A DNA stretch of 32,174 bases from Candidatus Anstonellaceae archaeon. Lineage in GTDB: Archaea; Micrarchaeota; Micrarchaeia; Anstonellales; Anstonellaceae. The first letter of the stretch is position 1, and each line of letters starts with the position of its first letter. Of the stretch, positions 1 to 16,914 are shown one piece after another. A program made the position numbers and the translations under genes. Where the stretch lies: contig JBKBMW010000002.1 in the NCBI GenBank assembly GCA_046295675.1, forward strand, positions 1 to 32,174, written 5' to 3'. The notes beneath the pieces are model-generated. The model saw only the letters and a program-made list of their open reading frames with translations, was not told the DNA's origin and ran no database searches.

Positions 1-528
1 GAAAAAGATAACGTATTAAAAGAGAAGTTAGAAAAGAAAAAAGAGGAATTAATAGAGACAGAAAAACAAAACCTATTAAGAGAGGAAGCTAAAGCAAAAT
101 GGGAAGAAATTCCCTCTGATGAGAAAAAAAAGCAAATTGATGAGGTATTAAACAACCAAGAAATTAAAAACGCAATTATAGATAAATATAAAAAAGAGCA
201 AGTTTTTCCACAAGCAGAAAATGAAGTAATAGAAGCTAAATTAAGGGAAGAAAATTTCCCATTAGATAAATTCTATAAGATTGTTTATAGGAATGTAAGT
301 GAGGATAATTTAACAGAAAGTTTAAATTCAGCCTTAAATTCCATGCTGGCTGAAGCAGTGCTTCCAACACTTGGTTCCTATCTTACAGGAAAATTGGGAC
401 TTGGTCTTGTTTTTAGTAATCCGAAATGGGAAGATTATATAAACGGAGTTTTTTCCAATCCAGAAACATCATTGAGTAACACTATACAACAGTGGCAACA
501 AACAACTAAAATGACCCAAAGTAGGTGA
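1..528 (+). CDS. 3' part of a larger ORF whose 5' end lies outside the window. A Lys/Glu-rich, probably coiled-coil segment is followed by a Gly/Leu-rich hydrophobic stretch (VLPTLGSYLTGKLGLGLVF). Hypothetical protein and first visible gene of the membrane-protein gene train.
   Basis: My hand translation shows frame +1 open from base 1 (EKDNVLKEKLEKKKEELIET...) straight into the listed 343..528 ORF. TGA stop at 526-528. Only 12 nt separate it from the next same-strand gene. Confidence 0.6.
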   Translation, partial: EKDNVLKEKLEKKKEELIETEKQNLLREEAKAKWEEIPSDEKKKQIDEVLNNQEIKNAIIDKYKKEQVFPQAENEVIEAKLREENFPLDKFYKIVYRNVSEDNLTESLNSALNSMLAEAVLPTLGSYLTGKLGLGLVFSNPKWEDYINGVFSNPETSLSNTIQQWQQTTKMTQSR

Positions 529-540
529 CAAGGTGTTTAA

Positions 541-1098
541 ATGAAAGATTTTAGCAAATTTTATCAAGCTTTGGAAAAGAAAGATAATCATCTAATTAAG
601 TTTTTATTAGAAAACTACAAAAAAGAAAATTCTTCTAGATTGGAAACATGGAAAAATATTACTGTTAAGAGCCTTTCTTCATTTCAAGGTTATTTTTTTA
701 TAAAAAATCAAGGTTTATTTTTATATGGAAAAATAGTTCCAGAAATTTTTTTTGTTTTTCTTTCAATAAATCACATCCTTGAGCAAACTCTCAAAAATTT
801 AACTTCTAATTCCAAACTTGTCAAAGAAAACATAAAAAATCTAGAAAATTTAGAGTCTAGATTTGAAAAACTTTCTTTAAAATTTAGTGTTTATTATCAG
901 ACAATGAGTGCAGTGGTAGGGGCATATCATTTCTATAAAAAAAACCTTTCTTTAACTATCCATTTTTTAGATAGATTGGAAAAACAATTTAATCTAAAAA
1001 AACTAGACTTGCTTTCCATTTCAGAATTAAATTCTATTTCTATAAGATTAACCAAGCTAGCTGAGGAATACCTACAAAAAGCAAATAAAAATCAATAG
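541..1098 (+). CDS. Hypothetical 185-aa protein, mostly helical and Lys/Leu/Asn-rich, with one hydrophobic segment (GLFLYGKIVPEIFFVFLSINHIL). No family recognised.
   Basis: ATG ORF with the SD-like AAGGTG 5 nt upstream (530-535). 8-nt gap to the next gene. Long open frame in an AT-rich, stop-rich background. Confidence 0.75.
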   Translation: MKDFSKFYQALEKKDNHLIKFLLENYKKENSSRLETWKNITVKSLSSFQGYFFIKNQGLFLYGKIVPEIFFVFLSINHILEQTLKNLTSNSKLVKENIKNLENLESRFEKLSLKFSVYYQTMSAVVGAYHFYKKNLSLTIHFLDRLEKQFNLKKLDLLSISELNSISIRLTKLAEEYLQKANKNQ

Positions 1099-1106
1099 GT
1101 TTCTCT

Positions 1107-2309
1107 ATGGTGGAATTATTAACCCAATATTTTTATGTAGGAACTGCTTTAAGCTCTTTAATTGTTGCATTGACTTATATGATTGGCTCTTTGTTTTCTT
1201 CAGAGCCTTTAAAAGGCTGGGCAAGAAAGGAAATAGCTGATTTGCTTTTTATTGTTCCACTCTTTTATATTCTTGTCTTTTTTTTATCTAATTTTTCTTC
1301 TGATGACCAAATAAATATAGTATCTAACTCATTTGGGCCAGAAAGTTTTTTTTATAAGGATCTAACCAACTTTTCCACTCAACTTATTACAAATGTTTTT
1401 TATTTTTCTGCAGTTTCATCTTACAATTATAATTATCAAGTTGGTTTGTCTGTCTCGGATTTAGTACCAATATCAATCCCACAATGGTTTAATTTTGGTG
1501 GAGGATTATCCTCATCTCAATATCCTGGTTATGGTTCTAATATAATTTTAAACCAACTTTTCTTTGGGATAGATTACTGTTTTAATATACTATTTCTTCT
1601 TAATTCAATCTTCCTAATTTTTAGTTTTTTAGTTCTTATATCAATAAATTTTCTTCTTCCTTTAGGCATTTTTCTTAGAGTTTTTCCATTTACAAAAAAA
1701 GCAGGTGGATTTATTGTGGGCTATTGTTTAGCAGTTTTATTTGTGTTTCCTTTTGCAGCCCAATTGAGTGCAGGCCTATCCTCTTTGGTTTTAGAAAAAG
1801 CTAAAAAAGATGGTTTTATTTCTTCAATTCCAAATTTGGAATACTCTGATAGACCACCTATAAAAAATTTGAATGCTGAACTTATTAGGAATTACATTTT
1901 GAGTCCTTTTTACATTATCCCTACTTCTGTAATTGCTAATGCCATTGCTTCTTTACTTGCTTTTATTGGAGTACCGCCAGGTTTTTCTATTGACAACTTT
2001 TTTCAATTACTTGTTAGTGCAAGCACTCCAATTGCCCAAATAATTCAATATATTATTAATTTAGTCAAAAAGATAATTCCAATTGCTATTGGAGGAACAT
2101 ATCCTAAATATGCAAAATCCACAGCTGATATTATAAAAAGTTATTATAAGCCTATAGTCACAAATATTTTACCAACCTTAAGTTTATACTTTTTAGTAAT
2201 TCTTCTTTCTGTTATTTTTCAACTTACTCTTACAATAGTTTTAGGGAGAAATCTATCTAATTTCTTTGGCCAAGAAGGCCAGCTCTATGCACTTTACAAA
2301 ATTCTCTAA
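1107..2309 (+). CDS. Paralog P1 of a six-member polytopic membrane protein family. This is the minimal 400-aa version with no signal peptide; it starts directly at TM1.
   Basis: Contains all three family blocks: YMIGSLFSSEPLKGWARKEIADL, LPLGIFLRVFPFTKKAGGFIVGYCLAVLFVFPF, and a C-terminal TM plus tail FFGQEGQLYALYKIL. About 5 hydrophobic helices. Confidence 0.85.
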   Translation: MVELLTQYFYVGTALSSLIVALTYMIGSLFSSEPLKGWARKEIADLLFIVPLFYILVFFLSNFSSDDQINIVSNSFGPESFFYKDLTNFSTQLITNVFYFSAVSSYNYNYQVGLSVSDLVPISIPQWFNFGGGLSSSQYPGYGSNIILNQLFFGIDYCFNILFLLNSIFLIFSFLVLISINFLLPLGIFLRVFPFTKKAGGFIVGYCLAVLFVFPFAAQLSAGLSSLVLEKAKKDGFISSIPNLEYSDRPPIKNLNAELIRNYILSPFYIIPTSVIANAIASLLAFIGVPPGFSIDNFFQLLVSASTPIAQIIQYIINLVKKIIPIAIGGTYPKYAKSTADIIKSYYKPIVTNILPTLSLYFLVILLSVIFQLTLTIVLGRNLSNFFGQEGQLYALYKIL

Positions 2310-2319
2310 GGTCGAGATA

Positions 2320-3279
2320 ATGCTAAAAAATTTATTATTTTTGATTTTGTTTGCATGCATTCTTTATAGTCAATCCACTCAAAATTATGGCCCAGTGCAA
2401 TGTTTTTCTTTTTCTTTGGATGAATTGTTTAATCCAGAAGCTCAAAAATCATTTAATCTTCCTATTGTTTTTTCAATAATGATTTCTTTAGTGGTTTTGT
2501 CCTATTTTTTTGGCAATCTACTCAAAAATCCTCATCTACTTGTTTGGGCAAAAACCGAAGGAGTTAATGTTTTTTGGTCAGGGGTTTTGCTTATCTCTAT
2601 TAGTGGAGCAATTACTTTTTCTTGTACAATTGCAACCTTTTTTGTCCCAGACTTAAAAACTTCTCCGCTTTCTTATTTATCGAATTATTTAAACAATATA
2701 TTCTCATTAGGAAAAAGCTATTCAATAGATCTTTTAAAAAGTTCATTTAATGATATGTTTTCTTCTATGGAACTAAATTCACCATCTTCTATTTATTTTG
2801 GAACTTCACAATTTGGAATTTATTATCTGGCAGGAAAAAAAGAATGGGCATCATATAAAGAAACTCTTAACTCTTATTTAGTTCCAATTTTAGGAATGAT
2901 TTATGCTCAAAAATTCATAATTGAAAATTTATTTTCTCTTATAGTGCAGATAGTTCTACCAACTTCTCTATTTATAAGAATCATCCCAATTTTTAGAGAT
3001 GTAGGAGACTTTTTAATAGCAGTGTGCCTTTCAATCTATTTCTTTCTGCCAATAATCTATTTTGCCACATTTTCTTCTGTTACCAATACCTTTGGCTCGT
3101 TTTCTCCTGATGCTCTTAATTCTGTTGTTTATCTTTATGATTCTACTATAGAAAATGCTTTAACTTTTATTGCCTTTCTTACTATACTGGCAGTGTTTAT
3201 TCCAAATTTGATTTTGGTAGTGATAACCGCCTCCTCCATGGCTTTATATAAAGCTATAAAAGGATTTTTCAGTGGGTGA
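2320..3279 (+). CDS. Paralog P2 of the membrane family (about 319 aa from ATG 2320), with an N-terminal signal-like peptide MLKNLLFLILFACILYSQ.
   Basis: The track ORF 2266..3279 begins at a TTG inside P1. ATG 2320 lies 10 nt after the P1 stop and yields a signal peptide like those of P3-P6. Family blocks: YFFGNLLKNPHLLVWAKTEGVNV and LPTSLFIRIIPIFRDVGDFLIAVCLSIYFFLPI. Short tail AIKGFFSG. Confidence 0.8.
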   Translation: MLKNLLFLILFACILYSQSTQNYGPVQCFSFSLDELFNPEAQKSFNLPIVFSIMISLVVLSYFFGNLLKNPHLLVWAKTEGVNVFWSGVLLISISGAITFSCTIATFFVPDLKTSPLSYLSNYLNNIFSLGKSYSIDLLKSSFNDMFSSMELNSPSSIYFGTSQFGIYYLAGKKEWASYKETLNSYLVPILGMIYAQKFIIENLFSLIVQIVLPTSLFIRIIPIFRDVGDFLIAVCLSIYFFLPIIYFATFSSVTNTFGSFSPDALNSVVYLYDSTIENALTFIAFLTILAVFIPNLILVVITASSMALYKAIKGFFSG

Positions 3280-6200
3280 TTGGATTTGAAAAAATTAATT
3301 CTTTTAATAATTTTTTTTGGTTTATTAAATTCGCAAACAACAAAACAAAACGATATTACTAAACTTGTCGAATTTACTAAGGACCAACTCCTAAATAACC
3401 CCCCCACCTTAATTTCTTCTATTCTTAATAATTATTCTACTTTGTTGATTTTGCTTTTTGCTTTAGCTGTTTTCATTTTAGCAATTGGTTATTTTGGGGC
3501 TTCTTTTTTTGATTTAACTGAAACCAAGGTGTTTATTAAAACAGAAATCGGTCAATTAATTTTAACTGCCATATTTGCAGGTTCTTTATTTGGAATAATA
3601 ATTTTTGTAGATAGACTTATAATTTCAAGTGCAGATTTTTTGGTTTCACCATGCGGGGAAAATTATGTTTATGCTCAAAACATTCCAATACCTATTCAAT
3701 ATGCAAATTGTTATCTAGATTCTTTAATCAAATTGGCTGACAAGGCATTGGAAGAAAATATAAAAGAATCAATAGAAGCTGGGAGGGAGACCTATAAACA
3801 AGTAGGTTATCAAGTTTCTGTTTCTCCTCTTTCAGGTTATTATTCCTTCAGACCTGCTGCATTTAAAAGGTTAGATGTGGAGATAAAAACTGCAGAGTCA
3901 CATTTTTTATCCTCTTTCTTAATCAGCCTAATATCTCAAAAAGCCTTTTTGAATTATATAGCACCAGTCTTTGGAATATTTTTATTATTTATTGGTTTAT
4001 TATTTAGAATTTTGTTTTTTACAAGAAAGCTTGGGGGTTTATTAATAGCAGCAGGTTTTGGTTTGCTTTTGATCTGGCCTCTAACCTACATGATCTCCTG
4101 GTTTACCTTTCGAGCAGGAATATTTGGTTCTCAAAACTTAGGAGAAGAAAGTGCTTTTTGTCCCAAAGAATGCCAAATCCCAGTTCCTGTTGCTTACAAT
4201 TTTTTAGCTAATCCAAAAGGAGAGTACAAACCAGAGACTATGCTTACTCTTGAGGAAGTAGCAGCAATTTTAAAAGAAAAACCAGAGAATAAAAATCAAT
4301 TTGAATTTTTAATTGAAAAGGGAATTCAGCCTTGTTTTGTTACTGATAGTGATAAAACTAAAAAATTTGGAATAATTAGTGTAAATGATTCAGAAAATTG
4401 TGATGAATCTTGCAGAGAAATTCCTTTAAATCTTCAAGTTTGCAAGGAACAAGAAAAACATTGCGATGCTCTTCCATTAGCCTGTAAAATAATCAGGTCT
4501 ATGGGACTGGAAAACTATACCTCATATTATCAAAAAAATTCTCAATATTGCTCTAACAAAAGTGTTTGTTCCAATTGCCCAGATTCTTGTAAATACCAAT
4601 TAAGGGAAATTCGTTATTCTTCTGATCCTTCCTTTATTCCAAAAGATCCAACCGGTGTTGGGATCATTCCCAGAACAGATTTAAAAAATACTATAAATTG
4701 TAGTTCCAAATGTGAAAAATGCCCTCCAGTTTGTAGATATTATTCCAAAAAAAACGATGGAACTTTTTTCTTTTTAAATAAGGATAGTGCAGAGTGTAAA
4801 AATTGTGATGATTGTTTTAACTATAAAGAACCTTCCACCCAACTCCCTATTTGTATGACTTATGTTCCTTTGATTTCAGTAGGAAACTGCCAACAGCTTT
4901 GTGGAATACCTTACTCTATAAGAAATGCCCCAAATAACAATATCTGCCCAATTGATTGCAGAATATATTTTGATAGCACTACTGATAAATATAAAGACCC
5001 AGTTTTTAGTTCTTTTTGTGAAAAAAATGGTGAATTTTTTGAAGCTTGCAACCGCTGTCCTATAGAGTGCAAAATAAATGCATCTGAAGTAATAAATCAA
5101 ATAGCAAAACAACAAAATCCCTCTTGCTCTCTCCCCCCTACTTTTTCTAATGGTCAGATGGATAATTCAATAAATAAGAATTGTGCAAGATGTGACCCAT
5201 CCTGTAGATTTTCAAATCCTTCTTCTATTGCATCTGCTCAAATTAAGAGCAGCTCAGGAGTTGATATAAACAATATAGAAAGTTATATTCCTATTTTTTC
5301 TGAATTTTATGCAAAAACTTTTGTTCAACAAAACTGTAGTTATAGTTCATCACCTTATGTTGAGTGTCCTACAGAGAGGAATGGTAATATATACACTGAT
5401 TGTAACTGGAAAGAAGGATCAGATTCATCTAAAACACTTCCAACCTATTCTCCAGCTAAGATAATTTATCCAACTACAGGGGATAATCCATTCTGCCCGG
5501 ATTTTATTGCCAAATTGCAAAATTTTGTTTTATTATCGTCTGATGAAAACAACCACATTATTGTAAAAGCAAATCAGTACCTTTCACATCTTTGTACTTT
5601 AGATAAAGATAGTGAAAAGTTTTGTTCTTCGCCTTATTGTCCTTCATCCTGCTATTATAACTCCTGGCCAAATTTTGCAGCTTTAGAAAATATCTCAAAT
5701 ATCACTTCAAAAATAAATTTTGCTCTGTCCAATTGCAATTTTAATGAAACACAAAAAGGCTGCTATTATTACAATTATCTCAATATGGTAGTTTTGAATT
5801 ATTCTGGACAATATTACTTGCCCAAATCAGCTGTTCAAAGCTGTTTCCCTTCTATTTCTTCAATAAGCTCTGATCTTTCTAACTTTGCCTGTTATCCAAT
5901 TTTAAAAATTCCTTCTGCTTCAGACTTTTCTTATTGTGGTAATTATATTGATTATTCAAATCCTAACAGGTCCATGATAAAAGGCTCAGCATGCCCATAT
6001 GAATGCAGATATGATGAATTAAAGAAGCAAAAAAATCCACAAATATGTGGTGATTTTACTCTCTCATTTACTTCTTCCAATCCCTCTCATAATTGTGAGC
6101 CATTCTGTAATGGTTTAATTAGATCATCAGATCTATCCTATTGCAACTCAGAAGCATATTCATGTACCCAACAACAAGCTCAAACCTATTGGGTAAGAAT

Positions 6201-7338
6201 TAATTCCATTCCAATCAATAAATCCCATAGCAACCGATTATGTAATCAATCTGTAGTTTTATATAATTCATCAATCACTTATAAAAAAGGAGATCTAGAT
6301 CGAAATAATCAACCATATGCTAAAGATTGGTGGGAAGACAGCTGTACCTATATAGAAAACGGTGAAACCAAATATATAAACTTCACTTTGGTAAGTGGCT
6401 ATTCTCCCTACCTTTGTTCTGCTGGGCATAAATATATAGGATTGGATGAACTAATTTCTTCTAGTGGTTATTCTCAATATAGAGAATGCGGCGAGATTGA
6501 TACTAACAAAAATCCTAACTATATTTTTTGCGGAAATTATAGTATAAATGTTGGGGGAACAAAAGCAGTTATAAAAGCATTAGATGATTTATGTTATGCT
6601 TCCTACAATGCTAGGGCAATGCCTGGATTAGCTTATCATTCTATTGGAGGAAACGGAGATTTCTCAACTAAAGTTAATGGTCAAATAAAGCAAAATATTC
6701 AATACTTTGATAATTGTCAACAATGCCCAGTGGTATTTAGAATCAAAAATTTGCAAGATGCTTATCTTTTGGGAATTCCTGGGATATTAACAAATCTTCT
6801 TAATTGTCAAAAGTGCAATATAAAAATAAACCCTCCCTATTCGTCTTCTTGTGAATTCAAATACGAGAAAGCCATTGGTTGCCCATTAAGATGCAGAATT
6901 GCAACTTTAGATGGAAGTCTTCCTTATGGCTGTGATCCAGATATAGATGATCAAAAAGAAAAAAGTTATGTTAATCCAGAAGTCGGATATGCTTGCGATG
7001 ATTATCATGCTTTAAGTTGCAGGATAAATTTAAGGGAGGATTTATGTGATGGTTGCAGTGAATTTTGTGAATCAGATTGTCAATCACTTCCTTATATAAG
7101 AAGAGATTGTTCTAGCTGTAATCCTGCTGCAAGTTTTGGTGCAAATTCCTTATTAGATGCTACTACCTCTCAAGCAGGTCTTGTTACCCAACCAGGTTGG
7201 ATAAGAATTGGCTTATTACTAATACCTTCTATAATTTTACCTTCATTTTCAATAGTAATTTTAGTATCATTTATAAAAGGTCTATCTCAATTCTTAGGAG
7301 GCGATATAGAAATACCTGGTTTGTATAAGTTGATTTAG
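3280..7338 (+). CDS. Paralog P3 (1352 aa). The family core carries a ~1000-aa cysteine-rich extracytoplasmic insertion between the fourth and the last TM helix.
   Basis: No ATG is available, so the start is TTG at 3280 (as in the track) or TTG at 3286, which sits 6 nt after GGTGA (3275-3279). Signal-like N-terminus (MDL)KKLILLIIFFGLLNSQ. Blocks: YFGASFFDLTETKVFIKTEIGQL and FIGLLFRILFFTRKLGGLLIAAGFGLLLIWPL. C-terminal TM plus tail LSQFLGGDIEIPGLYKLI. About 76 Cys by hand count. Confidence 0.85.
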   Translation: MDLKKLILLIIFFGLLNSQTTKQNDITKLVEFTKDQLLNNPPTLISSILNNYSTLLILLFALAVFILAIGYFGASFFDLTETKVFIKTEIGQLILTAIFAGSLFGIIIFVDRLIISSADFLVSPCGENYVYAQNIPIPIQYANCYLDSLIKLADKALEENIKESIEAGRETYKQVGYQVSVSPLSGYYSFRPAAFKRLDVEIKTAESHFLSSFLISLISQKAFLNYIAPVFGIFLLFIGLLFRILFFTRKLGGLLIAAGFGLLLIWPLTYMISWFTFRAGIFGSQNLGEESAFCPKECQIPVPVAYNFLANPKGEYKPETMLTLEEVAAILKEKPENKNQFEFLIEKGIQPCFVTDSDKTKKFGIISVNDSENCDESCREIPLNLQVCKEQEKHCDALPLACKIIRSMGLENYTSYYQKNSQYCSNKSVCSNCPDSCKYQLREIRYSSDPSFIPKDPTGVGIIPRTDLKNTINCSSKCEKCPPVCRYYSKKNDGTFFFLNKDSAECKNCDDCFNYKEPSTQLPICMTYVPLISVGNCQQLCGIPYSIRNAPNNNICPIDCRIYFDSTTDKYKDPVFSSFCEKNGEFFEACNRCPIECKINASEVINQIAKQQNPSCSLPPTFSNGQMDNSINKNCARCDPSCRFSNPSSIASAQIKSSSGVDINNIESYIPIFSEFYAKTFVQQNCSYSSSPYVECPTERNGNIYTDCNWKEGSDSSKTLPTYSPAKIIYPTTGDNPFCPDFIAKLQNFVLLSSDENNHIIVKANQYLSHLCTLDKDSEKFCSSPYCPSSCYYNSWPNFAALENISNITSKINFALSNCNFNETQKGCYYYNYLNMVVLNYSGQYYLPKSAVQSCFPSISSISSDLSNFACYPILKIPSASDFSYCGNYIDYSNPNRSMIKGSACPYECRYDELKKQKNPQICGDFTLSFTSSNPSHNCEPFCNGLIRSSDLSYCNSEAYSCTQQQAQTYWVRINSIPINKSHSNRLCNQSVVLYNSSITYKKGDLDRNNQPYAKDWWEDSCTYIENGETKYINFTLVSGYSPYLCSAGHKYIGLDELISSSGYSQYRECGEIDTNKNPNYIFCGNYSINVGGTKAVIKALDDLCYASYNARAMPGLAYHSIGGNGDFSTKVNGQIKQNIQYFDNCQQCPVVFRIKNLQDAYLLGIPGILTNLLNCQKCNIKINPPYSSSCEFKYEKAIGCPLRCRIATLDGSLPYGCDPDIDDQKEKSYVNPEVGYACDDYHALSCRINLREDLCDGCSEFCESDCQSLPYIRRDCSSCNPAASFGANSLLDATTSQAGLVTQPGWIRIGLLLIPSIILPSFSIVILVSFIKGLSQFLGGDIEIPGLYKLI

Positions 7339-8463
7339 ATGAAAAAAATTTCTTTTATATTTCTCATTTTTGTTTTTAGTTTCGGAATAATTTTTGCCCA
7401 ATCTCAACAAGATTCTTGCTTACCTAAGTCCATTAATTTGGCTCTTGGAATAAGCATCGGAATAATTTCTCTTCTTTTTTTGTTCGGATATTTATTTAAT
7501 TTTGAACAATTAAAATTCCTAGCAAAAAAAGAATTTGGTGAATTGTTTTTAGTTGTATTTTTTCTTTTATCTCTCTCTTTTTTCCATTTGTCCTTTTCTG
7601 AGCAATTAGCCAAAATATTTAACTTTGATTCAAATGGTTGGAGTGACAGATTAAATTATAAAAACTGGGGTACAGACAAGCAAAACAACCCAGTATTAAA
7701 AGTTACAAAGAATATTTTAGAAAACCTAGATTCATCTAAACTAACAATTCAGCAAAAAGCTTTTATTTTAATAGAAGAAAATAAACAACTTCTTGAAATT
7801 TTAACCATCAAGACAATAAATTTTGGAAATTCTATTTCAACTGAATCTTCAAAAATGAGCTATATAAATTTTCTTGGTCTTGGTTTTGGATATTCTCTTT
7901 GTTCTACTTATTCTGTTTTTAGAGGACCTGTAGGTTTACTTTTAAACGCTGAGGCTACTGCTTCCATTGCATTATTTTTTAGTGCATTTTTTAATTCAGT
8001 TTTTCAATCTTATCTATTATGCTATCTTCTTCCTATCGGAATATTTCTAAGGCTTTTGAGCTTTACAAAAAAAGCAGGGTCTTTATTAATTGCTCTTTCT
8101 ATCTCATTTTATTTTGTTTTTCCAACTGCAATTGTGGTATTTAATGACCTCTATAACTATTATTACATGAAGCTTTCTTTACAAACATCTAAAGATTCCA
8201 TCATTGTGCAGCAATATAACAATTTAAATTCATATTTCTCTCTTCCTGTTGACTGTGATATAAATGACCAAGATATGAATAAGACTGTTTCAAATATCAT
8301 GAAGACTTTACTAAAAAATCTAAAAGAAATTTTGCTTTTTATCATTTTAAAATGCATATTTATTTTATTATTTTCTCTTTCATTCACCCTAGTATTTGCT
8401 TCTTATCTTGCCCATTTCTTGGGATTGGATATAGATTTATCAACTTTGGCACGGTTGAGTTAA
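7339..8463 (+). CDS. Paralog P4 of the membrane family (374 aa), with signal-like N-terminus MKKISFIFLIFVFSFGIIFAQ.
   Basis: The ATG directly abuts the P3 TAG stop. Blocks: FGYLFNFEQLKFLAKKEFGEL and LPIGIFLRLLSFTKKAGSLLIALSISFYFVFPT. Tail LAHFLGLDIDLSTLARLS. Confidence 0.85.
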   Translation: MKKISFIFLIFVFSFGIIFAQSQQDSCLPKSINLALGISIGIISLLFLFGYLFNFEQLKFLAKKEFGELFLVVFFLLSLSFFHLSFSEQLAKIFNFDSNGWSDRLNYKNWGTDKQNNPVLKVTKNILENLDSSKLTIQQKAFILIEENKQLLEILTIKTINFGNSISTESSKMSYINFLGLGFGYSLCSTYSVFRGPVGLLLNAEATASIALFFSAFFNSVFQSYLLCYLLPIGIFLRLLSFTKKAGSLLIALSISFYFVFPTAIVVFNDLYNYYYMKLSLQTSKDSIIVQQYNNLNSYFSLPVDCDINDQDMNKTVSNIMKTLLKNLKEILLFIILKCIFILLFSLSFTLVFASYLAHFLGLDIDLSTLARLS

Positions 8464-8464
8464 T

Positions 8465-11400
8465 ATGAATAAATGGTTTTTATTATTTGCATTCTTTTGG
8501 ATCGGACTGCTATTCTCTCAGTTTCCTCCACCACCTCCAAATGTACTTTTTGAAGTTTATGATAGCCCAGTGATTGACCCTTCTAATCCTCCTCAAAGAA
8601 CTACTGAAATCACAAAATTAAAACCATTTTTTCCATATTTAATCTTAGACTGTCCTCTTTATAATGAGGGTGAGAGTGATTGTATTTTTACTATCAATTT
8701 AGTCAATTTTACTTGCCACTATCCAGATCCTGATGGTATTCCTATTGATACTGTTCATACCCTGACTTTTGCTAATCCAATTGTAGTTGCAAACGGAGAG
8801 AGAGTTTTTTTTTCTTTTGACCCTTCTAATCCCTCTAATCCCCTTTATTCTTTTTGGATAACGCATCCCTCCCCTATTCCTCCTAACACCAAGTCTGCAG
8901 CTGTTTGTTCTAGCAAAAAATATGCAAATTTTTCTTATATAATAGAGGCAAGAAGAGCTGGATTGCCAAGCTCTATTTTTGAAAAATCCAATTTAGTTAA
9001 TATATTTCATCACCCTCCAGAAATAAGCTTTCCCTTTACATCCACCCCTCTTTGTAATTTAAAATTTTCTGTAAGTGATTTGGATGAGAGTTATGGTAAT
9101 AGCGTTTATATAAAAATTACATTATCAAATTCCACAAATAGTTGCAACTTTATATACAATCCAGGAAGTGGTATAGGTTACTTCCCACCCAAAGAGAAAG
9201 ATAATTGCGATCCTTTTGAGTTTTCTGCCCGTGAAATGGTTTTGAATCCTTCTCCTCCACCTATAAATACAACCTTTATTTTACATCTAAAGGCAACTTA
9301 CTCTCCTTATAATATTACTGTATTCCCTCACAATAGCTATAGTTATACTCTAAATAATTATAAAAAATATTTTATGGTTAATGGCCCTCCATATGAACTA
9401 ATCAATTTTTTTTGCAATAGGGTAAGCAAAAACTATGACCTTTTTGGTTCAGCACATGTTTTTTCAAATAAAATAGAAATTGAAGCAAATGCAACTACTT
9501 CTAGGATAAACTTTAATAATCACTTTTTTAAAAATCTAACAATAGAAGTCTTGAATGACCAAGGTAGCACTATAAATAGTTATAATTTTTCCTGGGTATG
9601 TGATAGTGGTGTATGTAGCTCTGCTCAATTTGATTATTCAACAAATGCTAGGAATTTAATAATAGACCAAAAGACATTTACTCCAATCCAAAATTCTTTT
9701 AATAGCACTCTTACTTTAGACACCTCTCGACTCTGTCCACAAGGGGATAAAAATAAGCTTAAAATAAAATTATTTGGTTATGGGTTTGATTGGGAGAATA
9801 AAGAATTGTTATTATATAACGGAAAGTGTGCTGGAACCCCGCATTTGGACGCAGTTATTTATTCATCACCCTCACAAAAAGGTGATATAATAGTACTATC
9901 TGATTTTACTCAAAGAGAAGATAATTTCAAATATATTATTGTTGAGCTAAAACAGCTAACAAATATTCAAAAACCACCAACTTTAGAAATAAAATACAAA
10001 ACCCATAATGATGCAATTGTTCGTTCAAAGGTTTCATCGATATCTTCTGCTAAATCTATTAAAATTTCTTATGATATAAATTGGATAAATGTCAGTATAA
10101 TCTCACCAAATGTACCTGTAATATATAAAGAATTTACTTTTCCTCTACCTCCCCCAATTGAAGTATTAGAGAGATGGAAAATAGATGACCAATTAATAAA
10201 TGAGGAACAAAAAGATGATATACTTAAAAATAAGCGTATTTATGTAGGAGAGAAAGATAAAGCTTTGGTAAATTTAGTGTTTAAAGTACCATATAATATA
10301 GACGGATATAATTTTGATCAATATTTATCTCCATATTTAGAAGGTGATTGTAGTTCTAGCTCAGTTAAATCAGGAAACGAGTATTTTGTCAATATTGATC
10401 TAAAAAAAGGTGCCTGCATATATAAAATAAGGGGAAAGTCACAAACACAACAAAATCAAAACCCATCTTTAAGTAAATTTTTAACTTATATAATATATTC
10501 TAAGAACTTTTTTGTCCCAAATAAGCCACAATCCTTTTGTGATTCCACACAACTTTTAAGCAGTACTTACTATAAGTTCTTTGCTGTTGCTCTTGCCTCT
10601 TTGATCCTAATAATTGGAATTGGATACATGGTTGGTTCTTTTCTCTCCCATCCTGCTTTGCTTGAATGGTCAAAAAGAGAAATTTTAGAGGTAATTTTGT
10701 TAGGAATTTTCATTTCTTTAGTTCCACAATTTTTATTATTTTCTTGTTCTGAAAAAATATCTATAGGTTCATTTCTTAACCTATTTCCATTAAAAAATAC
10801 AGTAGTTGAAAAAGGAGCCTCCTTATTAGAATTTGTTCAAAAAATTATGTTAGATTTAATAGAAAGGTCACACACTGTCATAACTATTTTAAGAAGAGAT
10901 ATATCCTATTTTCAAATACTTGCCTCTTATTATCATTTTAATTCGAGTTTCGTATCTGACATTGTTAGTTTTCTTGGTGTTGGTTTTAGCACAGGTTTTA
11001 ATGAAAATCCTTATTCAGGTTTATATCTACAAATATCTGTATTTAACTTTTTATTGCAACTAAATAACGCCTATTTATTTAGTGCCTTAACACATTACTT
11101 TATTCTTTTCTTTTTATCTTCTTCTACAGGAATGATTGTTCTTTTGTTTCCATTTGGATTTTTGTTTAGGTGTTTACCTTTTATAAAAAATGTTGGTTCT
11201 GTTCTTATTGCAATAGGTCTTGGATTTTATATCTTATTTCCAGCAGCTTATGTAATATATGGATTAATACTTTCTAACGATCATTTCAAGTATTCAACTT
11301 TCTGTGCTATTTTTCCACAAGATTCTCATTGCCAAGATTGTAATATTTATCAACTCTCTTTTTCGGAAAATCCAAAGTGCAATCTTATTTATACTAATGG

Positions 11401-11722
11401 TTGGGAAGATTTCAAAGACAAGAAATTGAATTATCAAAAAGATTTAGAAGAAGTTGGTAGTTTTTCAAAAAATACTTTTCCAGATCAAGACTCAATAACA
11501 AAAATTCAAAAAAATAAAGCATCATTGCAACCAGTATATCCATTATCACAAGATAGTTTTGATCCAGATTTAACAAAATACTTTAGTTTAACTGCTCTTA
11601 ATTTTATTTTAGTCCTGTTTATCCCATCTGTGATATTACTAATTACACTTTCATTTGTTAGAGATATTGCCTCGATTTTGGGAGGTGACATTGATGTCTC
11701 AAGGCTTATGTATCTGGCTTAA
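8465..11722 (+). CDS. Paralog P5 (1085 aa). A signal peptide and a ~690-aa Pro-rich, beta-strand-like ectodomain are fused in front of the family core.
   Basis: ATG lies 1 nt after the P4 stop. N-terminus MNKWFLLFAFFWIGLLFSQFPPPPP. The core starts near nt 10570. Blocks: YMVGSFLSHPALLEWSKREILEV and FPFGFLFRCLPFIKNVGSVLIAIGLGFYILFPA. Tail IASILGGDIDVSRLMYLA. Confidence 0.85.
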   Translation: MNKWFLLFAFFWIGLLFSQFPPPPPNVLFEVYDSPVIDPSNPPQRTTEITKLKPFFPYLILDCPLYNEGESDCIFTINLVNFTCHYPDPDGIPIDTVHTLTFANPIVVANGERVFFSFDPSNPSNPLYSFWITHPSPIPPNTKSAAVCSSKKYANFSYIIEARRAGLPSSIFEKSNLVNIFHHPPEISFPFTSTPLCNLKFSVSDLDESYGNSVYIKITLSNSTNSCNFIYNPGSGIGYFPPKEKDNCDPFEFSAREMVLNPSPPPINTTFILHLKATYSPYNITVFPHNSYSYTLNNYKKYFMVNGPPYELINFFCNRVSKNYDLFGSAHVFSNKIEIEANATTSRINFNNHFFKNLTIEVLNDQGSTINSYNFSWVCDSGVCSSAQFDYSTNARNLIIDQKTFTPIQNSFNSTLTLDTSRLCPQGDKNKLKIKLFGYGFDWENKELLLYNGKCAGTPHLDAVIYSSPSQKGDIIVLSDFTQREDNFKYIIVELKQLTNIQKPPTLEIKYKTHNDAIVRSKVSSISSAKSIKISYDINWINVSIISPNVPVIYKEFTFPLPPPIEVLERWKIDDQLINEEQKDDILKNKRIYVGEKDKALVNLVFKVPYNIDGYNFDQYLSPYLEGDCSSSSVKSGNEYFVNIDLKKGACIYKIRGKSQTQQNQNPSLSKFLTYIIYSKNFFVPNKPQSFCDSTQLLSSTYYKFFAVALASLILIIGIGYMVGSFLSHPALLEWSKREILEVILLGIFISLVPQFLLFSCSEKISIGSFLNLFPLKNTVVEKGASLLEFVQKIMLDLIERSHTVITILRRDISYFQILASYYHFNSSFVSDIVSFLGVGFSTGFNENPYSGLYLQISVFNFLLQLNNAYLFSALTHYFILFFLSSSTGMIVLLFPFGFLFRCLPFIKNVGSVLIAIGLGFYILFPAAYVIYGLILSNDHFKYSTFCAIFPQDSHCQDCNIYQLSFSENPKCNLIYTNGWEDFKDKKLNYQKDLEEVGSFSKNTFPDQDSITKIQKNKASLQPVYPLSQDSFDPDLTKYFSLTALNFILVLFIPSVILLITLSFVRDIASILGGDIDVSRLMYLA
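11681..11688 (+). promoter_or_regulatory. Shine-Dalgarno GGAGGTGA for P6, embedded in the P5 coding sequence.
   Basis: Complementary to the conserved archaeal 16S 3' end. 5-nt spacing to ATG 11694. The same bases encode the Gly-Gly-Asp of the P5 tail. Confidence 0.6.
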
Positions 11723-12824
11723 AAAATCTTATTTGTTTTTATTTTTTGCATTGTTATTTTCTATGGTCTTTTCCCAAGATTGGGGAAGTGCAAAAAGTGC
11801 AAATATTCAACCTACAGATTTTAAGTTATTTAATATTCCTTGGAAATCTACCTCAAATCAAGAAATTTCTTGGTTGAGCATTGCTTCAATAGTTATCTTA
11901 ATTTGTTTTTTAGCAAATACGATCTTATTTATGCTTGGAAAAGCATTTGAGTTAGATAATATAAAAAAATTTGCTATTTCAGAATTTTTTCAAACCACTG
12001 CTACAGCACTTATGATTGTTTTTTTTCTCTCTGGTATCACAGCTGCTTTTGATTTAATTCAAAAATATTTTCTCCCTTCTGGTTCATCTGTTTCTTGCAA
12101 TGGAAACATCATCGGTATTTGGGATAATAATTCTGGACCATTTACAATTATCAAATGTAAAATTTCAGAATATCTTTCTACTGCTTACTCCCTATTTAAT
12201 GCTACTTATATTGCTAATATTGATAAAGAAGTTGAAGGTTCGCAGTGTTATGGAACTTCTGGATTTACTGAATGCAAAATCTGGAATTCAGATCTTTATA
12301 GAGAAGTTGAAACTTATCACTATATTGCAAACAGGTTGACAAATGTTTCTATCTCTTTAGTTGCCCAGTATTTCTTTATAGATTATTTGCAAAATAATCT
12401 TTTATCTTTCTTTTTACCTGTTGGCCTGTTGCTTAGACTTTTTCCTCCTTTAAGAGGAATTGGAAGTTTGTTTATTGCTATAGTTATTGGTTTTTATTTT
12501 ATTTTTCCATTAACCTATCTTTTTATAGAACCTTCTATTAAAATAGAAGAACAAAAAGTCCAGAAGCCAAACTTAGCAAAAAATGTTTGTTTTTCAAAAT
12601 TTAGCCCTTTTGTTTCCACTTCACTTTTGCAACCAGAACCTCCATCTACTACTGGTTTACAATTCTCTTCAGATATAGGGCAGTTCATTGTAGAAATTAC
12701 ATTAGGCACATTTTTTTATCCATTCCTTTCTCTTGTAATAACTGTCATCTTTATAAATTTCTTAGCAGGATTTTTATCAGCAGACAGTGGTATGTTGATT
12801 CATTTCATAGCAAAGAATCTATGA
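11694..12824 (+). CDS. Paralog P6 of the membrane family (about 376 aa from ATG 11694).
   Basis: The track ORF starts at TTG 11655. ATG 11694 is preceded by the strong SD GGAGGTGA (11681-11688) and gives the signal-like MSQGLCIWLKKSYLFLFFALLFSMVFSQ. It overlaps the P5 3' end by 29 nt. Blocks: FMLGKAFELDNIKKFAISEFFQT and LPVGLLLRLFPPLRGIGSLFIAIVIGFYFIFPL. Tail LAGFLSADSGMLIHFIAKNL. Confidence 0.8.
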   Translation: MSQGLCIWLKKSYLFLFFALLFSMVFSQDWGSAKSANIQPTDFKLFNIPWKSTSNQEISWLSIASIVILICFLANTILFMLGKAFELDNIKKFAISEFFQTTATALMIVFFLSGITAAFDLIQKYFLPSGSSVSCNGNIIGIWDNNSGPFTIIKCKISEYLSTAYSLFNATYIANIDKEVEGSQCYGTSGFTECKIWNSDLYREVETYHYIANRLTNVSISLVAQYFFIDYLQNNLLSFFLPVGLLLRLFPPLRGIGSLFIAIVIGFYFIFPLTYLFIEPSIKIEEQKVQKPNLAKNVCFSKFSPFVSTSLLQPEPPSTTGLQFSSDIGQFIVEITLGTFFYPFLSLVITVIFINFLAGFLSADSGMLIHFIAKNL

Positions 12825-12834
12825 GTTGGGGGAT

Positions 12835-15800
12835 ATGAGAGTTTTATTTATAATTCTATTATCATTTGCTTTATTTTTTTTGGTTGGTTGTACTCTCAAT
12901 CCAAATAAAAATATTGTTAGTGGAGGTTGTTGCTATCAATCAGATACATTTTATACTTGCGAAAAATCATCAAATCCAGTAGCAAACACTCAAGATCTTT
13001 ATTCTTTAACAAATTGCGGAGTTTATAAATCAAAGGAATGTAGTTTTTTTAATTCTACTTCAGGGGAAATTTTAGATGCAAATAAAGATGTAATAAAAGA
13101 TGATGATGGTAATCCAATCCAACCAAATATGTGCTCTAAAAACTGCAATTTTGATAAAGCAAATTGTACAAATCAAGATGAGAAAAACACTTGTTACTCT
13201 CTAACTAATCCAAAAACAACTTACCCTATTTGTGTAAATAATTCTATAGTTTTATGTATTCAAAATCAATGTAAGGTATGGATGTGTGGTGAAAAAAAAC
13301 CAACAGTAAAAAGAGAGTACTCTTTTTCAACATCAGACCAAGAAACTTTAAAAAATAATTATAAATCTCAAAGTGGAAAAAAAACAATCTTTGATGTTCA
13401 ACGCGGTTTAGTTGGAAAAATATGTGAATTTAGATTTATGAATGCTTCCTCCTACAGGTTGCTTAGTGAACAAAAGTGGCTTGTCAATAGTATACGCCTT
13501 GGCATCCTTGGTTCATTTTCAGATTATGAAATTGCAAAATACTATTTTCCACCTTCAGATGCTTTTTGTAGCTCTGCATTTAACAAAAACGCAGTAGTAG
13601 AGAGCTTTATAAGGTATCTTATTTATTCTCCATCTACTTCTTCTTTTTCTCCTATTACAAAAGATTCATTTTGTTTTGATGATGGTACAAACTATATATG
13701 CAAAAATGATCCATCTATTGCCTTTCCAAAATCTGCTGAATTCTCTCATTTACTTTGCACTTCTTTTTGTTCAAGGTTGTTTAGCTGCCCATTAAGGAAT
13801 TTAAATTTTGCTACTGTTGATGTTTCCCCGCCCTCTACCTCTCAAACAAATCCAATAATTCATTACTTTTTAAATATATCCTCTTACTATTCCAATCTCC
13901 TTAAACTTTATCCAGATACCCAAAATTATTATAGAAAAGAAGGAGAAAAAGGAATAGGTCCAGAAGGTGCAAAAGCTTTTGAATGCATTTCTGATTCTGA
14001 TTGTTTTTCTAATACTTGCAGAAAGGATGTGTACTTTCGAGGCAGATGTTTTGATAACTCAAATAATGCTGTTGATTGTAATTGCACTTTAGTAAGTTCT
14101 TGTTCAGAAGCTTTTAAATGTGATAAATTCCCTCAAGATTCAATAGATGAGGCAGAGTGTAAAGCAGGCAAATTTTTATGTGAGCAAAATTCAATTAACG
14201 ATGAATTAATAGTTATGTGTAAATACTCTCCAACCACTTATGACCTTTATGCTTATGCTGATTTGGATAAATTATACCTCTATAAATTAGGTCAAAGTAA
14301 TGCTGTTTCTGTAATAGGACCAAATAGTTGGGATGGGACTTGGGGGGTTTATGATTTTTCAGAGTTTAATAAATATAAACATATGGAAGATGGCAATAAA
14401 CAACAGCTGGAATTTTCCAATATTGTAAGAAAAGTCGTGGAATTTGGTTGCCTAAACACTGACAAAAAAATAATAGAACAACCAAAATGTAATCCAGGTT
14501 ACTCCTTTAGCCCAATTAAAAAAACCTGTTTAGACTCAAATGGAAAGACCTCTTCTCCTTTTTGCACCAGTCCTTCACAAGGGCCACAAGAATGGGTGGT
14601 TTGGAAGGATAATGCTGAACACCTTTGGTATAAAATTAATGAGAAGACTTCTCAAGATAAAAAAAATGATGTTATCCGCTGGCAATGGGGCTATACATTT
14701 TTTGTAGTTCCAACCAATTTTGTAGTTTCTTCCACTCTGTCTTCTGCATCAAACAAGCAACTTTATATTATAACCTCCAGAAGTGTTTCCTTCAATGATT
14801 TGAAAAGAAAATTTTCATTTATTGACAAATGTGATTTAACTCATACTAACAAAATAGATGAGTTTGGAGGAGATTATGATATACTTGAAATCTCTATCAA
14901 AGATATTCCTTTACAAAAGCATTATTTAATAGAGCAATATATTACTCCTTTAACTTCTCACCCATATCTATTAGCAGGTGGAAACAAATTAGATTTTGGA
15001 GAGCAAGAAAAAAAAGCCCAATACTTATTTGATAAAACATGGATAATAAAAAGTTTTGGAAAATGCCAAAAAGATAATGATGATTTGCTTAAAACAAAAT
15101 CTTATGGTTTATGTAATAGCTGTGGAACCTTCCTCACTCTTGCTTATCAAAATGTAAGCAAAACCCAAACATCCTATTGTCCAAAAGATTGCGGTTTATC
15201 TGGGTCTCTTCTCTGTTTCTGTCCCTCCTCCCTTTATAATTTTTTTAACACAAAAACAATTGCTGGAGGGATGGCTGGAATCTCAGGTAATGTTTTTCTT
15301 CCAAATATCACCAATGCCTCTCCATCTACTATCCCTGAATTTTCTTATTTAATAAATAAAATCCATGCTTATCTAGAAAATAATGTGATTCCTGTTCTAG
15401 ATTTAAAAGAATATGCAAAAGATGGAATCTCTGTAGGAGGGAAAGAACAGGTTAGTTTTGATTATTCTAATCAGTTTTTAATGGCACCTCATTGTGAACA
15501 AAAAAAATACGATTGTACTTGTACCAGATACTCTGATTCAGATGGTTCTTGTATAGAGGGAAATTGTAGTTGCGATATTGCTCTTCCTCCAGATGCTTTG
15601 TTTTTATTTTTAAACAAAGATCACAGCCCAGTACTCTCTATTTTGGATACTCTTTCTTCCTCTACTGCCCAATCTAAAATAAATAATGCCAAATCGCTTT
15701 GTCCAAATTGCCAAGTAGGTCTGGAATATGAAAATATTCTTAATATCGATTCTGCAACTAATATAACAGAGTTTTATCAGTCTTCAGGACTAAATTCTAC

Positions 15801-16842
15801 TATAAAAGCATTTTTTGGAGTAGAACTTCAAGCACAAGAAAATTTAGGTTATCCTCCTCCCTCTCCCAATCCAGAATTAATTAATAACAAAAAAGTAGAT
15901 TTTTTGGTCTTAAATATCAAGTTCAGTGAGCAAAACAAAGACAATTACATAAAGGCAATTGAAAATGCTTACCAACTTTCAAAATATGTTTTATACCATG
16001 TAGGAAAACCAACCTTATGGAAACTAAGATTTGATGGGAAATTTGTTGATAGTCCTTATTCTAACCCTGTATTTTTAGATACTTTATTTGTTTCTCAACA
16101 AAATCTCACTCTTTCAGGAGTAGTTGGGATTTTACTTCCTTCCTTATTAGAAAAGCCAGAAAATGTTTTAGAAAACTTAGAAGTAGATAAGCAGGGGGAT
16201 AGTCAAAGCCAGTCATTTTGTTCTTTAGTAAATGGATCTTTAAATATATTACAACTTTCTTTTTACAACGAAGTAAAAAAACTTCAAGCACAAGATCAAG
16301 CTTGCAACCAGGCGGCATGTTCAGAGTGTTCTCCTTTAATTAAAGACGATCCAGAGGTATGTAATCCAAAATGTTTAGATGGAACTGCTTGTAGCAATGG
16401 TTTTAAGTGTTTACAAAACTGTATATCAAAAACTTACTGTCAAGCAAATAAATGCGAAGATAAATTTAATAATAAAAAAATCACCTGTTATTATATGCCT
16501 TCAAGTTCAAAATATTTTACTTATCTAAACAAACTAAATATTAATACTTTAGAGGAACTATTTGGAAATCCAGATATGCCTGAGATTATAGCTTCATTAA
16601 ATGAACCATGCTGTCTAAACATAACTACTGAAAGGTCTGAAAGTTATTATACCTATATTTCATCTATTGGAATTGATTATAGCTCTTCTAATGCTATTTA
16701 TCCATTTTTTGGTTCTAATGATACCAATTGCGGGCAATTTGAGCAACCTCAAGAGCAAGACCCATTAACCTGTAGTCCAACTGATTTACCAAGCTATACC
16801 CTTTCTAAGAAACTATACTATTGTTTTTGGGAAAATAAATAG
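12835..16842 (+). CDS. P7: giant (about 1335 aa) cysteine-rich secreted or lipid-anchored protein. It lacks the P1-P6 core and is the last gene of the train.
   Basis: ATG 12835 is in frame with track start TTG 12826. N-terminus MRVLFIILLSFALFFLVGC has a hydrophobic h-region ending in a lipobox-like LVGC. I see no further TM helix. About 69 Cys by hand count, with dense clusters such as ACNQAACSECSPLIKDDPEVCNPKCLDGTACSNGFKCLQNCISKTYCQANKC. Many N-x-S/T sequons. Confidence 0.8.
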   Translation: MRVLFIILLSFALFFLVGCTLNPNKNIVSGGCCYQSDTFYTCEKSSNPVANTQDLYSLTNCGVYKSKECSFFNSTSGEILDANKDVIKDDDGNPIQPNMCSKNCNFDKANCTNQDEKNTCYSLTNPKTTYPICVNNSIVLCIQNQCKVWMCGEKKPTVKREYSFSTSDQETLKNNYKSQSGKKTIFDVQRGLVGKICEFRFMNASSYRLLSEQKWLVNSIRLGILGSFSDYEIAKYYFPPSDAFCSSAFNKNAVVESFIRYLIYSPSTSSFSPITKDSFCFDDGTNYICKNDPSIAFPKSAEFSHLLCTSFCSRLFSCPLRNLNFATVDVSPPSTSQTNPIIHYFLNISSYYSNLLKLYPDTQNYYRKEGEKGIGPEGAKAFECISDSDCFSNTCRKDVYFRGRCFDNSNNAVDCNCTLVSSCSEAFKCDKFPQDSIDEAECKAGKFLCEQNSINDELIVMCKYSPTTYDLYAYADLDKLYLYKLGQSNAVSVIGPNSWDGTWGVYDFSEFNKYKHMEDGNKQQLEFSNIVRKVVEFGCLNTDKKIIEQPKCNPGYSFSPIKKTCLDSNGKTSSPFCTSPSQGPQEWVVWKDNAEHLWYKINEKTSQDKKNDVIRWQWGYTFFVVPTNFVVSSTLSSASNKQLYIITSRSVSFNDLKRKFSFIDKCDLTHTNKIDEFGGDYDILEISIKDIPLQKHYLIEQYITPLTSHPYLLAGGNKLDFGEQEKKAQYLFDKTWIIKSFGKCQKDNDDLLKTKSYGLCNSCGTFLTLAYQNVSKTQTSYCPKDCGLSGSLLCFCPSSLYNFFNTKTIAGGMAGISGNVFLPNITNASPSTIPEFSYLINKIHAYLENNVIPVLDLKEYAKDGISVGGKEQVSFDYSNQFLMAPHCEQKKYDCTCTRYSDSDGSCIEGNCSCDIALPPDALFLFLNKDHSPVLSILDTLSSSTAQSKINNAKSLCPNCQVGLEYENILNIDSATNITEFYQSSGLNSTIKAFFGVELQAQENLGYPPPSPNPELINNKKVDFLVLNIKFSEQNKDNYIKAIENAYQLSKYVLYHVGKPTLWKLRFDGKFVDSPYSNPVFLDTLFVSQQNLTLSGVVGILLPSLLEKPENVLENLEVDKQGDSQSQSFCSLVNGSLNILQLSFYNEVKKLQAQDQACNQAACSECSPLIKDDPEVCNPKCLDGTACSNGFKCLQNCISKTYCQANKCEDKFNNKKITCYYMPSSSKYFTYLNKLNINTLEELFGNPDMPEIIASLNEPCCLNITTERSESYYTYISSIGIDYSSSNAIYPFFGSNDTNCGQFEQPQEQDPLTCSPTDLPSYTLSKKLYYCFWENK

Positions 16843-16914
16843 TTTTATTTAAAAGCTTATTTCTCTAAAATATTTTTATACATCATCTATTTGTTCATTA
16901 AAAAGGTGGAGCAT

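Follow-up and report, generated by a model that had tools for sequence, protein, structure and literature searches.

A Predicted Cysteine-Rich Ectodomain in an Operon of Six Paralogous Membrane Proteins of Micrarchaeota

Introduction

What kind of structure would be built when a segment of about one thousand residues, 74 of them cysteines, is set between two transmembrane (TM) helices of an archaeal membrane protein, and to what would these cysteines be bound? The question is raised by P3, a gene of Candidatus Anstonellaceae archaeon (GenBank assembly GCA_046295675.1, contig JBKBMW010000002.1). The window analyzed here is this complete 32-kb metagenomic contig (32,174 nucleotides (nt), ~30% G+C), in which P3 occupies the third place in a row of six paralogous genes, P1–P6. 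A first-pass annotation of the translated sequence had described the segment as an exposed insert braced by disulfides or metal ions, and had compared it with Giardia's variant-specific surface proteins (VSPs).

The answer favored in this work, to which we assign a probability of roughly 0.55, is a disulfide-braced surface stalk of cysteine-stabilised helix-turn modules, carried by a hetero-oligomeric envelope complex. The cross-bracing of a surface domain by Cys is a known principle, used here by a new protein family; its module, fold and polytopic carrier are new, as is the operon of six paralogs, and no description of this cluster or domain was found in the searchable literature on DPANN archaea and Micrarchaeota. 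The evidence is weighed below against a metal-binding array, a transfer machine and a variable surface antigen.

Results and Discussion

Cysteine Content and the Recurring Module

The P3 translation contains 76 Cys, 74 of which lie in residues 288–1303 (nt 4141–7188; 1016 residues), the other two being C125 and C144. The first-pass hand count of about 74 out of 76 is exact, and its end at nt 7190, 2 nt beyond the codon boundary, is a trivial discrepancy. The Cys content amounts to 5.6% for P3 and 5.2% for P7, the last gene of the cluster, with 0–1.9% for the remaining cluster proteins. Every module peptide listed in that annotation is present, at amino acids (aa) 294, 374, 430–437, 478–485, 556, 590–597, 635–642, 787, 905 and 1201, and CDGCSEFCESDC is found at aa 1256–1267.

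Comparison with 5000 shuffles of the P3 insert confirms the recurrence of the module. Ten copies of C[PD]xxC[RKQY] are seen vs 0.12 expected, and 15 of CxxxC vs 5.3 expected, both counts being reached in 0/5000 shuffles; CPxxC occurs 8 times (0.34 expected) and CxxCPxxC 4 times (0.04 expected). The insert also contains a paired CxxxC...CxxxC (C537-x3-C541...C556-x3-C560) and close groups of three or four Cys, e.g., C474-x3-C478-x2-C481-x3-C485 and C1256-x2-C-x3-C-x3-C, which would suit the ligation of a metal ion. Paired CxxC knuckles 5–40 residues apart, the pattern of zinc-ribbon and rubredoxin-knuckle arrays, occur in three places (aa 478, 1146 and 1256). Other features argue against such ligation: CxxC is only weakly enriched (10 vs 5.3 expected; reached in 162/5000 shuffles); the ferredoxin motif CxxCxxCxxxC has zero occurrences in P3; and His is almost absent (0.7–0.8%, both in the insert and in the family). 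The richness in N-x-S/T sequons noted at first pass is a composition effect: 16 are seen vs 13.1 expected from the N/S-rich composition, a number reached in 1132/5000 shuffles.

The family-wide logo reads (C-x2-)C-P-x-x-C-[RK]-[VIY]-x-P, with P at 58% and R/K at 60%, and CxxxC is the commonest spacing. The motif CPxxC[RK] is exclusive to the P3 orthologs: it is found 302 times in 88 P3-type open reading frames (ORFs) and in none of P1, P2 and P4–P7, including variants of P4, P5 and P7 with 40–77 Cys. At aa 1146–1154 a degenerate module has its last Cys substituted and retains Pro and Arg family-wide (consensus CxxCPxxxR), which indicates that these two residues matter independently of the Cys pair. 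Alignment of module against module with hhalign gives mostly 12–16 common columns, a few pairs reaching as many as 39, consistent with a short motif, at most a degenerate ~40-aa unit, and not with a clean tandem repeat. The modules are spaced 37–80 residues apart, too tightly for thioredoxin-fold units.

Architecture and Predicted Topology of P3

The features of P3, with TM segments and sidedness as predicted, are the following:

3280..7338, +, P3, 1352 aa from TTG 3280 (public gene call: start ATG 3286, 1350 aa), third of six paralogous five-TM membrane proteins
3295..3336, +, hydrophobic core of the signal peptide, which ends ...LLNSQ
3433..3609, +, TM1 (aa 52–77), short cytoplasmic loop with an invariant E and Q, and TM2 (aa 93–110)
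3610..3954, +, outside TM2–TM3 loop with C125 and C144
3955..4110, +, TM3, cytoplasmic loop TRKLGG (aa 248–253), and TM4 with an invariant Pro (the "FP helix")
4141..5230, +, membrane-proximal ectodomain, aa 288–650, with seven C[PD]xxC[RKQ] modules
5231..7020, +, middle ectodomain, aa 651–1247, present only in long forms; mixed beta/helix, lower model confidence
7045..7119, +, Cys cluster CDGCSEFCESDC...CSSC, aa 1256–1280, membrane-distal in sequence
7198..7335, +, TM5 (aa 1307–1332) and conserved cytoplasmic tail LGGDIEIPGLYKLI

The middle ectodomain contains the modules at aa 787, 905 and 1201 together with the degenerate CQQCPVVFR at aa 1146–1154 (6715–6741).

The framework formed by the FP helix and the C-terminal TM, which the first-pass annotation had recognized as common to the paralogs, is real. 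P1–P6 follow one plan. After a signal peptide, which P1 lacks, come TM1, a short loop bearing an invariant Glu, and TM2; an outside loop of ~110 aa leads on to TM3, and a short basic loop (LR.FPFTR..G) joins this to TM4, in which a Pro is invariant. A variable outside segment separates TM4 from TM5, and the chain closes with a conserved tail, which reads LGGDIEIPGLYKLI in P3 and approximates LG.E.DLS.L.RL in the other paralogs. The loop TRKLGG is the signature of the P3 orthogroup. In P1–P6 the conserved residues gather on the predicted cytoplasmic face, namely, the Glu before TM2, the LR.FPFTR..G loop and the tail. The signal peptides of P2, P3, P4, P5 and P6 end in YSQ, NSQ, FAQ, FSQ and FSQ, respectively (motif [FY/N][AS]Q), and this common end may point to a processing site that they share and that is possibly unusual.

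The signal peptide would place the mature N-terminus of P3 outside. This placement, the five TM segments, the basic character of the short cytoplasmic loops (TRK between TM3 and TM4) and the confinement of Cys to predicted outside parts in the family members together predict that the insert is an extracellular domain between TM4 and TM5, as exposed as had been supposed at first pass. Such a location argues against metal ligation, and so does the TM2–TM3 loop, which contains 0, 2 or 4 Cys in 128/129 family members: the two-Cys outside loop of all paralogs suits a disulfide and not a metal site.

Conservation of the Cysteine Skeleton

The P3 orthologs can be aligned over their whole length (53% identity, 100% coverage). 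Word-indexed searches return 27 relatives, the exhaustive profile search 2322 cluster representatives at E ≤ 1e-3, of which 299 reach E ≤ 1e-30, and a core-alignment profile run against the word-indexed database only 6 proteins. Across the 19 long orthologs, conservation amounts to 87% in the 74 Cys columns vs 25% for other residues; the corresponding values for the six closest orthologs are 95% and 52%. In the membrane-proximal part ten Cys hardly vary across 125 sequences, and short and long forms alike retain C1256, C1259, C1277 and C1280 without exception. The rare losses of Cys are paired in the re-aligned proximal region, C378 being lost with C437 (phi 1.0) and C352 with C402 (phi 0.7), only two such events being seen. 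The number of ectodomain Cys is even in 92/129 members (p = 1.4e-6).

The remaining positions of the predicted ectodomain are moderately variable and not hypervariable. Their identity in the closest orthologs is ~0.40–0.51 vs 0.52 for TM1–TM2, i.e., they evolve faster than TM3–TM4 and the tail and at about the rate of TM1–TM2. The comparison proposed at first pass, which asked for conserved Cys among variable loops, thus shows the Cys as the conserved skeleton and the rest as varying, to a moderate degree in the closest orthologs. Analysis of Cys–Cys covariation in the 129-sequence alignment gives no usable signal on disulfide partners, since the signal is swamped by the presence or absence of the domain.

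This presence or absence is evident among 71 distinct complete P3-type genes, 46 of which carry a Cys-rich ectodomain of 275–1213 aa with a median of 36 Cys. In the other 25 its place is taken by a mere linker of 52–218 aa, in which the median number of Cys is 2 and CPxxC is absent, which indicates that the insert is accessory. Such insert-less genes are found in loci L057–L085, e.g., L064:7956-9431 and L084:9344-10741. The short Cys-rich forms, including family members of ~680 aa, retain aa 288–650 and the terminal CxxC...CxxC; the segment at ~aa 650–1250 is a further expansion of the long forms. In some clusters Cys-rich inserts (20–72 Cys) are carried instead by P1, P2, P4, P5 or P6, as in P4 of L011 (57 Cys) and P5 of L012 (72 Cys).

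Structure Models and Searches for Known Families

The AlphaFold model of the ectodomain, built on a 28-sequence alignment, has a mean predicted local distance difference test (pLDDT) score of 70.7; for the first ~350 residues the block means are mostly 80–95 (range 64–95). Each module is modelled alike: the Pro starts a one-turn helix that bears both Cys, and a strand residue follows. In the model of P0020, a 684-aa family member (pLDDT 75.7), TM2 and TM3 are long helices that extend beyond the membrane, and one more helix and a beta-hairpin lie between the two. The ectodomain model has no Foldseek match with E < 1 in PDB and BFVD, and the full short homolog gives insignificant matches only (ASCT2/EAAT, VirB6, TTYH2).

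Sequence searches lead to the same picture. In Pfam, NCBIfam and PHROGs no cluster protein has a significant match, the sub-threshold entries being at chance level and the single sub-threshold PHROG match pointing to a PHROG of unknown function. Pfam searches with seven orthologs, drawn from P7 and the upstream gene, yield nothing usable; one P7 ortholog reaches EGF_STAB1-2 at E 0.004, below the cut-off. Searches of PDB sequences with the P3 profile, P7 and the core profile give no match. Specific families were inspected in Pfam for P3 at E ≤ 1 and for 28 family members at E ≤ 10: neither Fer4, zinc-ribbon, HMA and Sco/thioredoxin domains nor VSPs are matched. EGF, furin-like and TNFR repeats have no Pfam match and no ectodomain fold match with E < 1. 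The S-layer domain (PF05123-type), which represents the Micrarchaeota S-layer (surface layer) protein family (bioRxiv 10.1101/2021.04.28.441871), is matched by none of the cluster proteins, and no ATPase, pilin or other annotated domain is found in the cluster. The P3 ortholog P0003 is labelled "NADH-quinone oxidoreductase subunit J" in GenBank; the label receives no profile support and is probably an annotation error.

Collectively, the Cys positions are conserved, the region is predicted to lie outside, and neither Pfam nor the ferredoxin motif supplies a confident iron–sulfur (Fe–S) or zinc-ribbon match, so that the proposal of an exposed, cross-braced domain is not contradicted on any of the three counts that the first-pass annotation had named.

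Disulfides or Coordinated Metal

In the mechanism that we favor, P3 would be the large-ectodomain subunit of a Micrarchaeota-specific membrane complex of six paralogs encoded in one operon. Each paralog would have its N-terminus outside and five TM segments, with helices prolonged beyond the membrane on the outer side and with conservation of the tail and of the cytoplasmic face, and in P3 the outside TM4–TM5 loop would have been expanded into the 1016-residue domain with its skeleton of ~74 conserved Cys. These Cys are most likely oxidised to disulfides. The unit (C-x2-)C-P-x-x-C-[RK]-[VIY] may act as a cysteine-stabilised turn, in which the Pro starts a one-turn helix, both module Cys (i, i+4) lie on one face of it and are bonded to a neighbouring segment, and a short strand comes next. 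The stacking of such units would produce a rigid, protease- and stress-resistant projection.

Helices bearing CxxxC and bonded to a neighbouring segment are known from the CS-alpha/beta defensins and from the twin-Cx3C small Tim proteins, which are small stand-alone domains. The P3 modules resemble these in having CxxxC on one turn, paired CxxxC...CxxxC and a predicted helix-then-strand order; they differ in that at least ten units follow one another irregularly in 1000 aa with an obligatory Pro and Arg/Lys, and no homology is detected.

The projection would extend into or through the space between membrane and S-layer, as a structural or contact element of the envelope. A pseudoperiplasm of 20–25 nm is reported for a cultured Micrarchaeon (bioRxiv 10.1101/2021.04.28.441871).

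A disulfide-braced projection is suggested by the outside location, the parity and paired loss of Cys, the scarcity of His, the lack of an Fe–S or zinc-ribbon signature, the two-Cys loop common to the paralogs, and DsbA-like genes at two loci. The latter, in two other Micrarchaeota, encode a membrane-anchored DsbA/thioredoxin-like protein with the active site CFSC, located within ~7 kb of the cluster (L004:2065-3135 (-) and L036:6221-7114 (-)).

Several observations weigh against this reading. Such a disulfide-forming pathway was seen near the cluster in these two loci only, the gene not being a regular neighbour elsewhere. The number of ectodomain Cys is odd in 37/129 members, and multiples of four are favored (58 vs 34). 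The strict retention of Pro and Arg/Lys, even at aa 1146–1154, is not explained by disulfide bracing alone. Many Micrarchaeota come from anoxic habitats. Finally, with the insert missing from 25/71 P3-type genes, the core can do without this domain, whatever its function.

Part of the same evidence would fit an array in which the Cys groups ligate Zn, Cu or Fe–S centres instead of forming disulfides. The domain would then be a scaffold braced by metal, a store or sensor of metal or, in the most extreme case, a conduit for electrons outside the cell. The preference for multiples of four and the anoxic habitats count in its favor, and so do the appearance of accessory Cys in sets of three or four and the conserved Pro and basic residue flanking the Cys, as in redox and metal sites such as the Sco and thioredoxin-type motifs. 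The CPxxC unit resembles the CxxxC copper site of Sco, and Zn or clusters could be bound by groups of four Cys. Metal binding thus remains a live rival on the strength of the divisible-by-four excess, the odd counts, the retention of Pro and Arg/Lys, and the anoxic habitats; set against the scarce His, the weak CxxC signal, the lack of matching domains, the module spacing and the predicted outside location discussed above, it is unlikely.

Genomic Context

The row 541-16842 (+) holds eight head-to-tail genes that abut or overlap, named P0, P1–P6 and P7. Apart from P3, they are as follows:

541..1098, +, P0, 185 aa, coiled-coil-like by eye, without signal peptide; first complete cluster gene in the contig
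1107..2309, +, P1, paralog of the P3 core
2266..3279, +, P2 (ORF limits), paralog of the P3 core; the real start is probably an internal Met near nt 2320
7339..8463, +, P4, paralog of the P3 core
8465..11722, +, P5, paralog of the P3 core with a 700-aa outside N-terminal domain
11655..12824, +, P6, paralog of the P3 core
12826..16842, +, P7, 1338 aa with 69 Cys, signal peptide with a lipobox-like LVGC, without TM core and without CPxxC[RK]

P4, P5 and P6 abut or overlap one another. P7 is the conserved last gene of the cluster, its orthologs having 1270–1460 aa and 45–77 Cys. The N-terminal ~700 aa of P5 (8465-10570) begin with PPPPP directly after the signal peptide and look beta-rich, with many sequons, by eye; this large domain is found only in some lineages, P5 being ~340–360 aa long in many others.

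Housekeeping genes of archaeal type are also present in the window, encoding both PolD subunits (small and large), PTH2, NurA, GlmS and a glycogen debranching enzyme, and the closest relatives of its proteins are in Candidatus Anstonellaceae and Micrarchaeota metagenome-assembled genomes (MAGs). The 881-kb Anstonellaceae MAG contig L001 carries the same genes in the same order, including a P0 ortholog at the equivalent position, with an extra 502-aa gene before them and PolD after them. The window begins inside a Lys/Glu-rich ORF (1-528 (+)) where L001 holds this 502-aa protein, which has signal-peptide/TM character; BLASTP detects no similarity between the two, and homology is unproven. Between P7 and PolD lies an 89-aa ORF (16891-17160 (+)), at the place of an 82-aa UPF0147 gene in L001. 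Farther away, 30031-31356 (-) encodes a 441-aa low-complexity protein, extremely rich in Lys and Glu, with a CQCEGCAGNRGCCG motif near its N-terminus and no Pfam match, located where the GC content of the contig is lowest (22% GC, AT skew -0.5).

Distribution of the Cluster and Its Possible Role

Two distant Micrarchaeota have the same row of paralogs, and a scan of GTDB species genomes yields 119 confirmed stretches, of which 80 loci were kept. Their titles denote Micrarchaeota-type lineages, except for two "ainarchaeum" MAGs and a few labelled "archaeon". The dominant order is P1-P2-P3-P4-P5-P6, usually followed by P7, in ~80 Micrarchaeota species genomes, and in the kept loci the P3 type is always the third gene of the cluster. 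The recurring gene order, the abutting or overlapping genes and the paralogy of the cores together indicate an operon. As a rule there is one P3 copy per genome; a few MAGs have two clusters (L037/L050 on the same contig, CAILMU010000061.1; L015/L059; L032/L071), and two of these pairs combine one copy with a Cys-rich P3 and one with a Cys-poor P3.

The cluster is phylum-wide and also present in Anstonellales, which are described as anabolically rich and possibly less host-dependent (PMC8561730; PMC12892359). This distribution favors an envelope-structural or contact role for the putative complex over one in the transfer of material, which is judged less likely. A transfer machine would consist of a ring of the six paralogs, similar to the VirB6 platform of type IV secretion or to the lipid-handling five-TM TTYH/prominin proteins of eukaryotes. 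From this ring the P3 tower would reach a partner cell, and the complex would move lipids or other material into a metabolically reduced archaeon. The six fixed paralogs do suggest a ring, and dependence of DPANN archaea on partners is documented in the literature. Furthermore, the core topology, as judged from hydropathy and the P0020 model only, corresponds to that of TTYH, which is N-out and C-in with five TM segments, has two large loops outside the membrane that are built on extended TM helices, and bears disulfides as well as sites for N-glycans (PMC8361169). The polytopic, helical character and long helices of the core are likewise shared with VirB6/TrbL (TrwI).

All fold matches that would support such a machine are statistically insignificant: R388 VirB6 8rtd_L, the best non-transporter match, has E 1.4, probability 0.23 and TMt 0.29 over 265 aligned columns, 7o3v_F has E 4.3, and TTYH2 (7p5m_A, 9g71_A) has E 4.9–5.6 with TMt 0.15. 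When the 17-sequence core profile is compared with R388 TrwI/VirB6 by hhalign, the probability is 0.1%, and no TrbL, Tweety or Prominin Pfam match is found in 45 members (17 + 28) at E ≤ 10. No VirB4-type ATPase, pilin or other type IV secretion system gene appears in the window, in L001, in the L003/L004 Pfam tables or in a scan that covered large flanking orthologs (P7- and Pm1-type) of five more loci. The archaeal proteins differ from TTYH/prominin also in forming six paralogs in one operon and in the Cys-rich insert. A transfer machine is therefore distinctly improbable. A broader scheme, in which the nine-gene cluster is a phylum-wide envelope machine, with a TTYH-like five-TM ring and with the P3 tower and P7 bridging to the S-layer or a partner cell for the uptake of lipids or other material, is speculative and rather unlikely.

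The weakest of the alternatives, a variable surface antigen or adhesin in which a Cys scaffold displays fast-changing loops for evasion or host switching, would draw on the divergence of positions other than Cys, on the faster evolution of the ectodomain relative to TM3–TM4 and the tail, and on the spread of insert lengths; it is rejected as highly improbable, because P3 is a normally single-copy, syntenic and polytopic gene product, its loops evolve at the TM1–TM2 level, and any disulfide-rich domain is expected to show the same signature. The analogy with Giardia VSPs and other Cys-rich protist proteins drawn at first pass extends to the high extracellular Cys content, the short recurring Cys motifs, and the C-terminal TM with a short conserved tail; it fails on organisation, VSPs being single-pass, CxxC-dominated members of large switching multigene families, whereas P3 is a five-TM protein with CxxxC/CPxxC[RK] spacing encoded at a fixed operon position, with no similarity to VSPs in sequence or fold.

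Conclusions

The DPANN archaea, Micrarchaeota included, possess very small genomes, and no part of their biology is less well understood than the cell surface. In Micrarchaeota a conserved nine-gene block with no detected relative of known function takes up ~17 kb, or ~2% of the genome if the 881-kb contig of the close relative is taken as a measure. Its products include six paralogous membrane proteins, a fixed set, together with two giant Cys-rich proteins predicted to lie outside. An archaeal ectodomain of 1000 residues, ~7% of them conserved Cys, that lacks any fold relative is unusual. Should the broader envelope machine prove true, it would represent an archaeal cell-surface apparatus of a new class, and its protein fold would be new as well. 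If the cysteines form disulfides, as we favor, extensive oxidative folding outside the cell would be required; if they bind metal, the result would be an extracellular metal array without precedent. In both cases, the cluster offers a concrete and testable candidate for a part in envelope architecture or in contact with partners in cultured Micrarchaeota.

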